A stretch of DNA of 64,000 nt, from NCBI GenBank assembly GCA_964347975.1, contig CAYGAY010000007.1, positions 11,066 to 75,065 of the forward strand. Reading direction: 5' to 3'. Under the pieces are notes generated by a model. It had not been told where the DNA came from. It saw only the letters and a list, made by a program, of their open reading frames with translations, and searched no databases. Position 1 is the stretch's first letter. The number at the start of each line of letters is the position of its first letter. Shown one piece after another: positions 2,322 through 30,601 of the stretch. Made by a program: the position numbers and the translations under genes. The DNA comes from an uncultured Dehalococcoidia bacterium (GTDB lineage Bacteria > Chloroflexota > Dehalococcoidia > Lucifugimonadales > UBA3495).

Positions 2322-3881
2322 ATGGCTGCACATGTAAAATTCCTGGATACCACGCTCCGCGATGGCGAACAGTCCGCCGGCATCGGCATGACGGTGGACG
2401 AAAAGCTGCAAATCGCCCGGCAACTGGCCCGCCTCAAGGTGGACATCATTGAGGCCGGCTTCGCCGCCAGCTCCCCCGGCGACTTCCAGGCCGTCCAGCG
2501 CATCGCCGAGGATGTGGAAGGTCCCATCATTTGCTCGCTGTCCCGCGCCGTCCCCGGCGACGTTGACGCCGCCTGGAATGCCATCAAGAGCGCGGCCAAG
2601 CCTCGCATCCACGTGTTCCTGTCGTCCTCGGAGATCCACCAGATGCACCAGCTGCGCAAGGACCGGGAAGACGTGATGACCATGGCCGTGCAAATGGTCT
2701 CCCGCGCCAAGTCCTACTGCGACGACGTTGAGTTCTCGCCCATGGACGCTACCCGCACCAACCGCGAATATCTCTACCGGATGCTGGAAGAGGTCATCAA
2801 AGTCGGCGCGACGACCATTAACATCGCCGACACCGTTGGTTACGCCATTCCGTCGGACTTTCAGACCATGCTGGTGGACATTCAACAGAATGTCCGCGGC
2901 ATTGAGAACGTCACCCTGTCGGTCCACTGCCACAACGACCTGGGCCTGGCCGTGTCCAACAGCCTGGCCGCCATCGAGGTGGGCGCGCGGCAGGTGGAGG
3001 GCTGCATCAACGGCATCGGCGAGCGAGCCGGCAACGCTTCTCTCGAAGAGATCATCATGGCGCTGGACACCCGCAAAGACCTGTTCGGCGTCGATCTGAA
3101 CGTGGATACCACGCAGATTTACCCCAGCAGCCGCCTGGTCAGCCGCATCACCGGCATGAATGTCCAGGCCAACAAGGCCATCGTCGGCGAGAACGCCTTC
3201 CGCCACGCTTCGGGCATCCACCAGGACGGCGTGCTGAAGGACCGCTCCACCTACGAGGTCATGCAGCCTGAACGGGTCGGTCTGCCGCCGGACGTGCAGC
3301 TGGTGCTGGGCAAGCTCAGCGGCCGGGCCGGCCTCCAGGCGCGGCTGGAAGCCCTGGGCTACTCGCTGGACCGGGAAGAAGTCACCAGCGTGTACGAGCG
3401 GTTCCTGGAACTGGCCGACAAGAAGAACGAGGTGACCGACCGGGATCTGGAAATCCTGATGGACGAGGCGAACCGCTCCGCCTACGAGCCCATCAGCTAC
3501 GCCCTGGAAACCGTCCACTTCACCAGCGGCGACAAGGACATCCCCACGGCCACGGTGCGGCTCATCGGCCCCGACGGCAACGCCAAGACCGACGCATCCA
3601 CCGGCAACGGCCCGGTCGATGCCGTGTGCCGCGCCATCGACCGGGTGATCGGCGTCACCGCCCGGATCTCCGACTTCCAGGTGCAGGCGGTGTCGGAAGG
3701 CCGGGATTCGGTAGGATCGGTGTCCATACGGATTGAAAACAGCGGCCGCATCTTCTCCGGACGCGGCGCCAATACCGACATCATCGTAGCCAGCGCCCAA
3801 GCCTACCTGAGCGCGATGAACCGGATGCTGGCCGCCGACGAAGCGGAAACCCAGCCGGCCGTTGGAACGACGCCGGATTAA
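2322..3881 (+). CDS. leuA: 2-isopropylmalate synthase (LeuA/CimA family)
   Basis: N-terminus [15 protein letters not shown], HxH motif [12 protein letters not shown], and a C-terminal LeuA-dimer-type regulatory domain. It follows ilvC. Confidence 0.85.
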
Positions 3882-3967: not shown

Positions 3968-4684
3968 TTAGGCGGCGAGTGCGAGTGGCATTTCGTCCCA
4001 GGTTCTGCCGTCCAGTTCCCGGCCATTGCGTTTCTTGAACACGCCGCCCCATTGCTTGAAGTAGAAAGGCACGCCGGTGTTAATGCACTGATCGCGGATG
4101 TCGCGCGCCCAATCGGGTTGCATCGGACGAGCGCCGGGGCCGGATTCGCCGCCCACGATGACCCAATCAATGCCGGCGAGGTCCAGATCGGGCAAGGGGC
4201 CGAGCAAGGGTTCCAGTGAGAGGAACTTGACGGCGGCGTTGGTTTCGCGGAGCAGGTCGATCCGGCGCGCGTAATCCTGCTGCTCAACGCTGACGCCCTG
4301 CCAGATTTGGGCGGGCCAGGGCAGTCGCGAGTTGAGGCTGGCCACCCGCTCCGGTCGCTTGGTGAGCACCTGGTAACGATGCCAGTGGGCGCGGGTCATT
4401 ACGTCGAAAACCTCCGCGATGAAATCGTCGGGTACTTCTGGGTGAAATAGATCGCTCATGGAGTTGACGAAGATGGAGCGGGGCTTGCGCCAGCGCAGGG
4501 GAACATCCAGGGTGTCGGGATGCAGGGTTACGGCAAAGCCGTTGCGGTATTTCGCCATTCCGGTGGCCTTGAGACGCTTGGAGAGGCGCTCGGCATAACA
4601 ACGCTTGCAACCCGGGCTGATTTTGTTGCATCCGGTAACCGGGTTCCAGGTGGCGTCTGTCCACTCGATTTTGGAGGCGGCCAT
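3968..4684 (-). CDS. phage Gp37/Gp68-like protein (DUF5131 family)
   Basis: N-terminus [28 protein letters not shown] is the signature of this family. Confidence 0.75.
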
Positions 4685-5007: not shown

Positions 5008-6174
5008 TTACAGCAACGGCATCTGGAATGCTTGGTCTGCCGCCGTTGCGCCCTTGCCCAGGTGGGTGGCGGCGTAGCCCATGCGCCGCAAGTGGGCGGC
5101 GAGGTCGGGGAAGCCGAAAACGGTGTACACCCGTTGCGGCCGGACGGCCTGGACGTAAGCCACCAGGTCGTTGAAATCGGCGTGATCGCTGTAGGGCAGG
5201 CTGGCGTCCCCCGGGCGTCCCCGGCCCCAGGGCTTGACGCCGGCTCCGGCGGCCCAGCCGGTCAGTTCCAGGTAGCGCGCCGATTTGCCCGGCGGGCGAT
5301 GAGCGGCGATCTGCTCGCGAGACTTCCGGCCCGGCGGGAACAGCAGCGCTTCGCCATCATGGATGTCGCCGTCGAAGACCCGGTATTCGCCGTTGAAAGT
5401 TATCCCGCCCGCCTCGTATCTGCGGACGGTCTCGTAGATGCCCTCCTCGCAAACGACCCGAAACCCGCCGGCCAGCAGGTGATGCAGGGCCTCCTGCGCC
5501 TTGCCCAGCCGCCAGCCCAGGATCACGGGCAGCGCGCCCTGCTCCAGCCACTGGGCGGTGACCCGGAGGGCCGTCCCTATTGCCTCCTCCTGGGGCGGGA
5601 AAACGTAATCGGGCCGGCCGTAGGTGCTTTCGATCACCAGCACGTCGCAGGGCACTGGCTCCGCCGGTTCGTTGATGGGCGACGGCTGTGTCCGCAGGTC
5701 GCCGGTGTACAGCAGTCGTTCTCCCGTGCTGCGTCGGGTGACCAGAGTTTGCGCCGAACCCAGGCAGTGGCCCGCCGGATGCAGCGTGATCGTGTAGTCG
5801 GCCGTTTCCAGCGCCTCGCCGTATTCCAGTACCACCGGCTCGGAACGCTTCAGGTAATCGCCCAGAAGCCGGCGGGTGCCGTAGGTCAGCGCCGGGCGAC
5901 GGTGGCGGGCGGTATGGTCGGAGTGCGCGTGGGATATGACCGATACATCCTGCTTGCGCCGGGCGTCCAGCCACAGGTCAAGTTCGGGAAGATAAATGCC
6001 TCTGTCGAAAACCACTTCCACCGGAGCAACCCAGGCCGCCGGTCGCGACGTCAGCGAGTATAGCACGCTATTCTGACGCTTGCGGTATAATTCCTGCCAT
6101 CCGCGCCGGCCCGGTATCTGCCGCACCAGGACAGCCGTCCGGCGCAAAACAGGAGATGCTTGATGCCAGGTCAA
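5008..6174 (-). CDS. MBL-fold / beta-CASP-like hydrolase, resembles ligase-associated DNA-damage-response exonuclease
   Basis: Motifs ISHAHSDHTARH, HPAGHCLGSAQ and VIESTYG. The annotated ATG at 6174 overlaps the divergent peroxiredoxin start at 6163, so the true start is probably internal (for example GTG at 6066). Confidence 0.6.
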   Translation of the reverse strand: MTWHQASPVLRRTAVLVRQIPGRRGWQELYRKRQNSVLYSLTSRPAAWVAPVEVVFDRGIYLPELDLWLDARRKQDVSVISHAHSDHTARHRRPALTYGTRRLLGDYLKRSEPVVLEYGEALETADYTITLHPAGHCLGSAQTLVTRRSTGERLLYTGDLRTQPSPINEPAEPVPCDVLVIESTYGRPDYVFPPQEEAIGTALRVTAQWLEQGALPVILGWRLGKAQEALHHLLAGGFRVVCEEGIYETVRRYEAGGITFNGEYRVFDGDIHDGEALLFPPGRKSREQIAAHRPPGKSARYLELTGWAAGAGVKPWGRGRPGDASLPYSDHADFNDLVAYVQAVRPQRVYTVFGFPDLAAHLRRMGYAATHLGKGATAADQAFQMPLL

Positions 6175-6627
6175 ATTGGCGACGTTGCGCCGGATTTCAC
6201 TCTTCCGTCACCCCATGACGGCGACATCACCCTCAGCAACTATCGCGGCAGCAATTCCGTCGTGCTGTCGTTCCACGTGCTCGACTTCACCAGTGGTTGA
6301 ACGGACCAGGCGACCTCGTTCCGCCGTTTCAACGAGCGGTTCCAGGAGCTAAATGCCCAGGTGCTGGGCATCAGTTGCGACCACGTTGCCGCCCACCGGG
6401 CCTGGACCACCACCATGGGCGGCCTGCCCTATCCGGAGCTGTCCGACTGGCATCCCAAGGGGCAGGTGACCACCGCCTACGATCTTTGGAACGAAGAGCG
6501 TGGCGCCGGAACCCGCGCCGTTATCATTGTGGACAAGGATGGCGTCATCCGGTACCGTGAGACGTACCAGCCGGGCACGCTTCCCGACCCGGAAACCATT
6601 TTGCAAGCGGTGGCTGATCTGGGCTAG
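6163..6627 (+). CDS. BCP/PrxQ-type peroxiredoxin with in-frame TGA (candidate selenocysteine) at codon 46
   Basis: AGGAG at 6151-6155 precedes ATG 6163. One frame reads MPGQIGDVAPDFTLPS...VVLSFHVLDFTSG-TGA(6298-6300)-TDQATSFRRFNERFQELNAQVLGISCDH... and continues into track ORF 6361-6627. Total length is 154 codons, the normal BCP size. The TGA sits where T-x-x-C has its peroxidatic Cys. Confidence 0.7.
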
Positions 6628-6637
6628 TGAACAAAAA

Positions 6638-6661
6638 GGGGCGGGGATTTCAACCCGCCCT
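6638..6661. terminator. bidirectional intrinsic terminator between the peroxiredoxin gene (+) and the GreA-like gene (-)
   Basis: Stem gggcggg/cccgccc with an 8-nt loop. It is flanked by an A-run upstream and T-rich sequence downstream, so it gives a U-tract on both strands. Confidence 0.65.
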
Positions 6662-6693: not shown

Positions 6694-7566
6694 CTATCCG
6701 CCGATTCCCTCAATGCGATACTGAACCGCCCCCCGGGGCGTGTTGATGGTGACTTCTTCGCCAGGGCTGCGGCCCATCAAGGCTTCTCCAATGGGGGAAA
6801 CCGTGGATATTTTGCCGGCCGACACGTCGGCCTCGCGCACGTCCACCAACGTAAAGACCCGCTCCTGTTGGGCAGTCAAATCGTGCAGGGTAACTCTTGA
6901 CCCAATGATCACCCGCTCCGTGTTGGCGTTGGAAGCATCGACGATCTCGACGTTGGCTAAATCGTTTTCCAACTGTCTGATGCGGCGTTCGGTCAACTGT
7001 TGCTGTTCGCGGGCGGCGTCCAGAGGAGCGTTTTCGCGCACGTCGCCGTCGCTGCGGGCCAGCCGGATGGCTTCCCGTATTTGAGGAACTTCACCCCGCA
7101 GGCGTTGCAGTTCAGCCTGTAGCTCGGTATGCCGTTGCTGGCTGAGGCGGGCGCTGGGGGTGCCGGTGGAGGCGCCGTTATGGTCGGCGTTCTGGAAGCG
7201 GCGGCGGTTGCGACGCGGCGCGGCGGCGTAACGAGCCAGGCTGTTCTCCGTCCAGCCGCGACGGTTGGCGAAGGTTAGAAACTTCTTGATGGGATCCAAA
7301 CGGGAGGACGGATCTTCCACGTTTTCCGTGGTCCACTTGGCGTATTCGCCGACTTCAATAGCGTGGAGCGTCGATATGAGCTTGTCCCGGCCGATTCTGG
7401 CCTGGAAACGCAACAGCTCCTGCTGGCCCTGCAATGCCTGTTTGCTCTCTTTGAGGTGATCCACGAACGCATTAATTGCCTGTGAAATCGAGAGGGGCTG
7501 ATCGTTGGTCAACTGTCCATCCTCCAGTTTAATCGCAGACTCAGGCTGCAAGGTGGCGATTATCAT
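6694..7566 (-). CDS. GreA/GreB-family transcription elongation factor with a ~140-aa N-terminal extension of unknown function
   Basis: The C-terminal ~150 aa carries GDVRENAPLDAAREQQQLTERRIRQLENDL (coiled coil) and ISTVSPIGEALMGRSPGEEVTINTPRG (GreA C-terminal domain). I do not recognise the N-terminal 140 aa. Confidence 0.75.
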   Translation of the reverse strand: MIIATLQPESAIKLEDGQLTNDQPLSISQAINAFVDHLKESKQALQGQQELLRFQARIGRDKLISTLHAIEVGEYAKWTTENVEDPSSRLDPIKKFLTFANRRGWTENSLARYAAAPRRNRRRFQNADHNGASTGTPSARLSQQRHTELQAELQRLRGEVPQIREAIRLARSDGDVRENAPLDAAREQQQLTERRIRQLENDLANVEIVDASNANTERVIIGSRVTLHDLTAQQERVFTLVDVREADVSAGKISTVSPIGEALMGRSPGEEVTINTPRGAVQYRIEGIGG

Positions 7567-29815: not shown

Positions 29816-30079
29816 CTAGCCACCCCCAATGGCGGGCACGAAGTGGATCTCCGCGTCTTCTCCCACCCGTTCCAGCAAGCCCATACGGGCTACCTCGCCA
29901 TCGATCGCCACCGCCAGGTTTGAGCGGATTTCTCCATCCTCAGTCAGCCGTCCGGCGATGCCGGGAAACCGCTCGTCCAGCTGCTCGATGACCTGGCGCA
30001 CGTTGCGCGCCGTAACGTCCACTTCCTTGATCCCGCCCGTGCTGGCTTGCAGCATCGTCGGCACGAATACTCTCACCAT
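29816..30079 (-). CDS. MoaD/ThiS-family ubiquitin-like sulfur carrier
   Basis: 87 aa ending in ...HFVPAIGGG (C-terminal Gly-Gly). The start was set to MVRVFVPT. Confidence 0.7.
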   Translation of the reverse strand: MVRVFVPTMLQASTGGIKEVDVTARNVRQVIEQLDERFPGIAGRLTEDGEIRSNLAVAIDGEVARMGLLERVGEDAEIHFVPAIGGG

Positions 30080-30139
30080 ATCCTTGACCCCCTTGTTCAG
30101 GATTGTGGATCCATCATAATGCGCGACCAACTCATTGCG

Positions 30140-30601
30140 TCAGCATACCGTTGGCACAGCGTCGCCGGCAAATATGTCGTTGGCCCGCTGCAACTCGCGA
30201 ATGTAGCAGATTATCTGCTCAACTTGTTCTTCCGATACGCCGGGGACCGGGGGCATATTGCCAAAGTTCCAGTGGTGGGCCGGCACCCCCTGGCTGACGG
30301 CGTTGCGGAAGGTGAAATCGGCGTGATGGCCCGGTTCGTAGATCTCGTGCACCAGGGGCGGCCCCTGATTGGTTCCCGCCGCATTGACGCCGTGGCACAG
30401 GACACACGTGGTGTTGAATGCCTGCTGACCGGCCACCGCCGGCTTCGACAGGGCGGGGACGATGACGTCCGGTTGGCGGTCAGCGTTGTTGGCGGGGCTT
30501 CCGTACTGCGGGGTCTCTGCGCCGGAACAGCCGGCCAACGCCAGGAAAGCAAGCGCCGCGATGATGAACAACGCCTTGGGAAACCGGAATGGCGACGACA
30601 T
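30140..30601 (-). CDS. c-type cytochrome, lipoprotein
   Basis: Lipobox LALAGC, haem motif CVLCH, and a distal Met region NFGNMPPV. Confidence 0.75.
   Translation of the reverse strand: MSSPFRFPKALFIIAALAFLALAGCSGAETPQYGSPANNADRQPDVIVPALSKPAVAGQQAFNTTCVLCHGVNAAGTNQGPPLVHEIYEPGHHADFTFRNAVSQGVPAHHWNFGNMPPVPGVSEEQVEQIICYIRELQRANDIFAGDAVPTVC

Follow-up and report, generated by a model that had tools for sequence, protein, structure and literature searches.

The 64,000-nt stretch of DNA analysed here (the window, which lies on contig C7 of G000, the genome of a SAR202 (Dehalococcoidia) bacterium of marine or sponge origin; 3.64 Mb, 75 contigs) carries at 6163–6627 a peroxiredoxin (Prx) gene, referred to below as prx, whose reading frame is broken by a TGA at the position of the catalytic cysteine and which we read as encoding a selenocysteine (Sec) protein; positions are those of the window unless a contig is named (Table 1). 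From an ATG at 6163–6165, 45 sense codons lead to ...LDFTSG, the TGA (6298–6300) stands as codon 46, and 108 more codons follow in the unchanged frame up to a TAG at 6625–6627, giving a read-through product of 154 aa in which the TGA is the sole interruption. These features, together with the ribosome-binding site (RBS) AGGAG ahead of the start codon, had been pointed out in an earlier reading of the bare sequence (the original prediction), and both sequence and translation agree with it on all of them. Gene calling under translation table 11 splits the frame into a 46-aa open reading frame (ORF) and an 88-aa ORF at 6361–6627. Orthologs share the ATG start, with a GGAG-type RBS at the equivalent place in all 37 that were extracted, and in several of them the triplet before the ATG is itself a stop codon.

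The read-through protein matches the AhpC-TSA profile PF00578 over residues 5–131 (E 4.5e-35, 120.7 bits against a cut-off of 26), covering profile positions 1–123 of 124. Its best matches in the PDB are chains of Mycobacterium tuberculosis AhpE (Rv2238c), aligned over residues 5–151 with E-values of 5e-27 to 6e-25 (91–98 bits), the top one being 5C04, an engineered F37H mutant of AhpE; structures of other subfamilies follow at 5e-19 (Prx1-type, at most 72 bits) and at 5e-15 to 4e-10 (BCP-type, at most 59 bits). Within this alignment U46 falls on the peroxidatic Cys45 of AhpE, T43 on T42 and R118 on R116. An AlphaFold model built on 33 orthologs (mean predicted local distance difference test score 95.4, predicted template modelling (TM) score 0.91) places U46 at the start of helix α2 (residues 44–62), which is followed by a strand at 65–71. 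All top structure matches to this model in the PDB are peroxiredoxins, and Foldseek again ranks AhpE chains first, with TM scores of 0.94–0.95 in both directions, root-mean-square deviations of 1.2–1.5 Å and 35–36% identity. Among NCBIfam equivalogs the protein stays under the cut-off of every one, including those for PrxU (NF040737, 67.9 bits against 270, in a profile of 233 positions for a protein of 154 aa) and Bcp (PRK09437, 51.1 bits against 140). Because AhpE is the best match both in the PDB and by Foldseek while the equivalog scores are all too low, the protein is assigned by sequence and by predicted fold to the AhpE-type (1-Cys-type) peroxiredoxins; the BCP/PrxQ label originally given to it is not the best fit, as the weaker BCP scores above show, although the accompanying alignment of the TGA with the active-site Cys of a T-x-x-C motif was right, the motif being T43-S-G-U46.

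The resemblance to AhpE (PDB 1XXU, 1XVW and 4X0X) extends over the whole chain, both proteins being 153–154 aa long and free of a C-terminal extension, with the peroxidatic residue, the Thr and the Arg all in register; the differences are Sec in place of Cys45, His-Val in place of the Phe-Pro that precedes the motif, and a Cys72 added in most members of the clade to which the window gene belongs. With BCP/PrxQ proteins it has in common a small, monomer-sized chain, a thioredoxin-like fold and the TxxC motif, but it lacks the resolving Cys that those proteins carry five residues after the peroxidatic position.

The TGA is conserved. In all 24 other species of the genus in which an ortholog occurs (84–99% identity) it contains exactly one in-frame TGA, as do orthologs from elsewhere in the order, in different families and at identities as low as about 39%. 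Across the 37 extracted loci the TGA occupies a single alignment column, within F-T-x-G-U-T-x-Q and 44–45 codons downstream of the ATG, and a scan using one genome per species added a further 80 loci, with TGA at this position in 80 of 80; these come from SAR202/Dehalococcoidia metagenome-assembled genomes, many of them sponge-derived, and also from Candidatus Entotheonella. When 150 genomes were sampled evenly across the class, an ortholog was found in 23, and 21 of these have the TGA. Altogether it recurs at the identical position in more than 130 independent assemblies, closed chromosomes included. The protein is under strong purifying selection on both sides, the ratio of nonsynonymous to synonymous substitutions (dN/dS) within the genus being 0.079 for the codons that precede the TGA and 0.061 for those that follow, at a synonymous divergence (dS) of about 1.2. 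Given this joint conservation of the TGA column and of both flanking halves, a pseudogene, a sequencing error or a pair of unrelated ORFs can effectively be ruled out; of the options first proposed, local recoding or a pseudogene under an unaltered code, the recoding and the unaltered code stand and the pseudogene falls. Genuine Cys forms also exist, at 46–66% identity, and their Cys aligns with the TGA.

The genome has what Sec insertion calls for. Profile searches of G000 recover selB (351 bits; C41:9794–11650), selD (378 bits) and selA (547 bits), each over its curated cut-off, and a tRNA-Sec is found both by Rfam (69 bits) and by ARAGORN, which calls it SeC(tca), with anticodon TCA; selD itself holds an in-frame TGA. 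The code is otherwise standard and the recoding local, since, of the 2628 open frames in G000 that reach 300 codons or more, TGA ends 1132, a larger share than any other stop, and CCA is the anticodon of the tRNA-Trp, leaving tRNA-Sec as the only tRNA with a UCA anticodon. The same conclusion had been drawn from the window, on the strength of a TGA stop in ilvC at 1974–1976, and the 336-aa, ilvC-sized ORF at 966–1976 does terminate there.

Moreover, prx has company in this SAR202 genome, which abounds in selenoprotein genes. G000 was scanned for in-frame TGAs by coding potential filtered for redox motifs, followed by Pfam searches, and among the 8104 candidates selD ranked 2nd and prx 14th; plain coding-potential ranking was too noisy in this genome of 62% G+C. 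At least eight further likely selenoprotein genes were recognised, each with its TGA at a redox motif: those for SelD (SHCAG-U-AAK), a thioredoxin-like/NHL protein (WTYC-U-VNC), a SelW-like Rdx protein (C-V-P-U), a DUF3179 protein (Y-U-TLCG), a GrdB-like protein (T-U-PLC), two UGSC proteins and a DsbA-like protein (U-PWC). In seven of these genes the TGA lies inside a Pfam domain; for the GrdB-like gene the match ends at residue 160, with U at 161. These families are the ones reported as prominent in marine metagenomes (PMC9312934). Other candidates were rejected: at C13:59069–60865 only tetratricopeptide repeats follow the TGA and no domain spans it, and C19:16566–18896 consists of an acyl-CoA synthetase-like gene and an ATP-binding cassette ATPase-like gene in one frame. 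Within the window, the frame at 29816–30601 on the minus strand (C7:40881–41666) joins a cytochrome c-like ORF (CVLCHG) to a ThiS/MoaD-like ORF (...AIGGG) with one TGA, in the context C-U-R, between them; as the ThiS/MoaD-like part has a Met of its own soon after that point, this is most likely two genes rather than a selenoprotein gene.

In every ortholog two hairpins, H1 and H2, follow the UGA. H1 sets in about 12–15 nt after it and consists of a lower stem (6312–6318/6342–6348), a symmetric UU/UU internal loop (6319–6320/6340–6341) that is invariant yet doubles as two conserved Phe codons, and an upper stem (6321–6325/6335–6339) carrying an apical loop of 9–11 nt that starts at about +27 after the U of the UGA. 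A stem-loop with its core at 6321–6326/6333–6339 had been drawn here in the original prediction, and it is present in the minimum-free-energy (MFE) fold, at 6309–6350; the apical loop had been thought to lack the usual G, which is not necessarily the case, since a conservative upper stem of 4 bp yields the loop CGUUUCAACGA, with a CGU start and GU at loop positions 2–3. H2 begins about 4 nt beyond H1 and is a perfect 8-bp stem (AUGCCCAG/CUGGGCAU) closed by a GUG loop (GUN across orthologs) that lies 63–65 nt after the UGA.

Comparative data support both structures. Covariation was assessed across 33 distinct sequences, aligned without gaps and anchored on codons, with 500 shuffles and slid structures as controls; over H1 and H2 together 83% of cells are paired and the covariation score is 0.227, compared with 0.129 in shuffles (none of 500 reaches the observed value) and at most 0.101 for slid structures. 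Both sides have changed at 8 of the 12 pairs of H1, in which 72.5% of cells are paired, and in H2, with 98.9% paired, eight sequences show a compensatory exchange of A-U for G-C at one pair. As the hairpins overlap conserved codons, synonymous codons were shuffled within each gene as a further control for the region +13 to +76. The 80 distinct Sec forms fold at −27.7 kcal/mol against −17.2 kcal/mol when shuffled (mean z −3.05, with 94% below −2), and the window gene at −28.1 against −17.4 kcal/mol, none of 100 synonymous shuffles being as stable. Taken singly, H1 gives a mean z of −2.34 in the Sec forms (−2.73 in the window gene) and H2 one of −1.96. Synonymous divergence points the same way, being 0.45 in the 25 codons after the UGA and 0.64 elsewhere. 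The compensatory changes and the excess over synonymous shuffles thus lend the originally drawn stem-loop support that it did not have from a single sequence.

What distinguishes the two hairpins is their behaviour where Cys has taken the place of Sec. Four of the six Cys forms have no excess structure (z −0.1 to −0.8), and the other two, L143 and L146, retain it; the excess stability of H1 is the part that is lost, whereas 6–8 of the 8 pairs of H2 are kept in Cys forms because the codons for A/T-Q-V-L-G are self-complementary. This weakens the case for H2 as a Sec-specific signal; it may have an auxiliary role, or it may merely result from the codons for AQVLGI. Hairpins after the UGA of the other selenoprotein genes of G000 have their loops at +20 to +32, mostly with GU (GUG, CGUGU, CGUGA); with its CGU start near +27 the H1 loop fits this pattern, and the GUG loop of H2 fits it in form, but at +63.

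Bacterial selenocysteine insertion sequence (SECIS) elements, of the Escherichia coli fdhF type and in the bSECISearch consensus, have an apical loop 16–37 nt after the UGA with a G early in the loop. H1 is like them in its onset, in the place and, with the 4-bp upper stem, the CGU start of its loop, and in being conserved and covarying; it differs in its invariant UU/UU internal loop, in having no loop motif common to the clade and in being followed 4 nt on by a second conserved hairpin. H1 is thus probably the SECIS element, and binding of SelB to it is predicted. Less likely, though deserving mention, is an arrangement in which SelB binds H2 and H1 acts as a folded spacer that brings H2 near the ribosome, the two forming a two-hairpin SECIS. 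H2 is the most strictly conserved structure of the region, with compensation at one pair and the synonymous-shuffle excess given above; its G+C-rich stem and GUG triloop match the hairpins of the two UGSC genes of G000 and resemble that of selD; and with H1 folded only about 4 nt would separate it from the base of H1. Against this, its loop lies at 63–65 nt after the UGA, beyond the +20 to +32 of the other selenoprotein genes, and its pairing persists in Cys forms, so that Sec-specificity resides in the excess stability of H1.

The active site of the clade was surveyed over the 80 distinct Sec forms and the 6 Cys forms. T43, R118 and position 46 (U, or Cys in the Cys forms) are invariant throughout. 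Of the 80 Sec forms only one has the Pro that is near-universal in PxxxTxxC motifs; Val39 takes its place in 76 of them and in 5 of 6 Cys forms, and 76 of the 80 have His38 ahead of it. The F-P pair is retained by a Cys paralog in G000 (C1:371243–371704, 39% identity). By its sequences, then, this AhpE-like clade has lost the canonical active-site Pro. Cys72 is present in 70 of the 80 Sec forms and is replaced by T, V or S in deeper branches, and is thus not essential to the use of Sec; within this genus it is a possible resolving thiol, on the analogy of the Prx fold, in which it would be close to U46.

The refuting conditions that the original prediction had named for genome and orthologs were each checked, and every outcome favoured a selenoprotein. 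Taken together, these data put at roughly 94% the probability that 6163–6627 is a genuine and intact selenoprotein gene for an AhpE-type peroxiredoxin, with Sec inserted at the UGA. We would expect H1 to stay folded at the mRNA entrance of the ribosome when the UGA is reached, and to recruit the SelB–GTP–Sec-tRNA(Sec) complex, so that Sec would be inserted and termination avoided. In the protein, a selenolate at the N-terminus of helix α2, activated by Thr43 and Arg118, would reduce peroxide by way of a selenenic acid, which would then be recycled by a thiol from outside the protein or, as a possibility in this genus, by Cys72. The reductant system of AhpE itself, mycothiol with mycoredoxin-1, is actinobacterial.

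Several observations weigh against parts of this account. Since the canonical Pro is missing from prx, peroxidase activity is proposed here by analogy only. On the side of the RNA, a single-sequence fold of 6298–6360 has no stability beyond that of dinucleotide shuffles (z −0.93), and the stem-loop becomes significant only with comparative data; RNAalifold, run on the fixed-column codon-anchored alignment, recovers H2 and not H1, as the register of H1 shifts between lineages; Rfam, even at permissive E-values, returns no SECIS or other credible family; and no loop motif is common to all orthologs, the CGU loop start being that of this genus and of several other SECIS-like hairpins of G000, so that no contact with SelB can be singled out from it.

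The remaining explanations dispense with Sec altogether. Conceivably, the UGA is decoded as Trp or Cys by low-level near-cognate read-through, or else it ends a 45-aa peptide and translation starts anew at GTG 6361; it is true that gene callers yield the 88-aa ORF and that many database entries are fragments of only 87–104 aa. Yet neither piece could form the Prx fold, which is one domain in the model; purifying selection acts on codons 47–66, which lead from the TGA up to GTG 6361, just as on the rest; the UGA coincides with the catalytic residue; selection for RNA structure is seen only where the UGA is retained; and the genome has the full Sec machinery along with at least eight other UGA-containing redox genes, all of which makes non-Sec decoding very improbable. 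More improbable still is a pseudogene or an error, be it a recent nonsense mutation or a TGC or TGT miscalled as TGA. A single genome would permit it, and a Leu at this position in database entry P0005 shows that point changes or errors do occur there, but the same TGA in so many independent assemblies, 37 of 37 extracted and 80 of 80 scanned loci among them, is at odds with it, as is a dN/dS of 0.06–0.08 on both sides at a dS of about 1.2. Least credible of all is a reassigned code in which TGA means Trp or Gly genome-wide. Most database homologs are the fragments just mentioned, and 'full-length' entries with Trp at position 46 are found among P0002–P0008, P0010, P0011 and P0111; these Trp calls in metagenomes could suggest reassignment, but they are artefacts of gene calling on short contigs, for which a TGA=Trp table was selected, and in G000 TGA closes more long frames than any other stop, with a CCA tRNA-Trp and no UCA tRNA other than tRNA-Sec.

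In a maximum-likelihood tree rooted on the Cys paralog, the Cys forms emerge at four separate places within the Sec clade, which suggests that Sec is ancestral in this AhpE-like clade and has repeatedly reverted to Cys. Consistent with this, the Cys forms L143 (1501–1962) and L146 (521–979), both with the codon TGC, keep both hairpins (synonymous-shuffle z about −3.6), and the hairpins have the look of 'fossil' SECIS elements that a recent conversion from Sec to Cys has left behind. Sec-peroxiredoxins of the sponge-associated Entotheonella, members of another phylum, are 71% identical; since L124, L131 and L134 (Candidatus Entotheonella/Entotheonellaceae) nest deep inside the SAR202 clade (support 99/94), with L139 also within it, the tree suggests that the selenoprotein gene was transferred horizontally, together with its SECIS, from SAR202 to Entotheonella.

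Peroxiredoxins with a T/SxxU motif (pfam00578/COG1225) form an established family of bacterial selenoproteins (Zhang et al. 2006, PMC1794560; Zhang 2022 review, PMC9312934), which is prominent in marine metagenomes and whose founding member is PrxU of Eubacterium acidaminophilum (Sohling et al. 2001, as cited in PMC9312934). The window protein shares with these the PF00578 domain, the existence of Cys-containing homologs and a TxxU motif with Sec as the predicted peroxidatic residue; unlike PrxU, it belongs to a short, AhpE-like branch without the active-site Pro and outside the NF040737 equivalog. Moreover, the 2006 survey inferred only Cys-to-Sec events for Prx (PMC1794560), in contrast to the ancestral Sec and repeated reversions that the present clade appears to display. 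A literature search found no specific description of a Sec-AhpE clade from SAR202 or Chloroflexi. On sequence grounds prx is accordingly classed as a new member of the known TxxU family, in an AhpE-like clade that lacks the Pro. Whether the clade amounts to something more, a lineage of Sec-peroxiredoxins that differs in mechanism and is recoded by an unusual signal (a Pro-less H-V-x-x-F-T-x-x-U motif, ancestral Sec with at least four reversions, transfer between phyla and a two-hairpin element), seems doubtful to us.

The gene stands alone, between a divergent ORF upstream for a hydrolase with metallo-β-lactamase (MBL) fold and RMMBL domain, and a convergent GreA-like gene downstream (6694–7566, minus strand), from which a terminator-like hairpin separates it (Table 1). 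The longest reading of the hydrolase ORF (5008–6174, minus strand, with a TTG start at 6174) overlaps the start codon and RBS of prx, and its true start probably lies further in. Between it and a leuA-like gene (2322–3881) lies a gene for a DUF5131 protein (3968–4684, minus strand; E 6e-105). The product of the GreA/GreB-family gene has its Pfam domains in residues 141–288 only, the N-terminal 140 residues or so being without a family match; the same GreA neighbour is found at the Cys-form locus L143.

Table 1. Coordinates of the features described in the text (window positions, except for entries that name a contig of G000).
Feature	Position	Strand	Basis or remark
RBS AGGAG	6151..6155	+	7 nt upstream of start codon; sequence
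Complete coding sequence, predicted Sec-containing AhpE-type peroxiredoxin, 154 aa and TAG	6163..6627	+	translation, PF00578, PDB match, model, dN/dS
Val39 codon, at the place of the near-universal Pro in PxxxTxxC; His38 before it	6277..6279	+	80 Sec and 6 Cys forms
Active-site motif T43-S-G-U46; TGA 6298–6300 as predicted Sec codon at the peroxidatic position	6289..6300	+	alignment to TGIC45 of M. tuberculosis AhpE; column conservation
H1, proximal hairpin, best SECIS candidate	6309..6350	+	MFE fold, covariation, synonymous shuffles
H2, distal hairpin, 8-bp stem with GUG loop	6353..6371	+	98.9% paired
Cys72 codon TGC, directly after strand β4; candidate resolving thiol in the genus	6376..6378	+	70/80 Sec forms; model strand 65–71
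Arg118 codon, conserved peroxiredoxin active-site Arg	6514..6516	+	invariant; aligned with AhpE Arg116
Terminator-like hairpin, 7 bp and G+C-rich, where prx and the greA-like gene converge	6639..6660		T-run on minus strand
Eight other likely selenoprotein loci of G000	C4:6504-7556(-), C13:3205-4725(-), C4:142015-142302(-), C2:18249-19895(-), C3:35646-36851(+), C18:27506-28129(-), C4:84481-85074(-), C5:37973-38629(-)		in-frame TGA

In summary, a protein of this kind and recoding of this kind are both textbook matter, and current understanding is unchanged by this gene; the main gain is a corrected annotation. Standard gene callers split prx into a stub of 45 aa and a fragment of 87–104 aa or read its TGA as Trp, and public collections are full of such pieces; once the gene is recognised, the annotations of SAR202/Dehalococcoidia regain a catalytic antioxidant enzyme. 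With at least nine selenoprotein genes in G000, it also marks abundant bacteria of the sea and of sponges as active users of selenium, and the matched natural Sec and Cys orthologs of its clade are suited to testing what Sec contributes in a peroxiredoxin without the active-site Pro.

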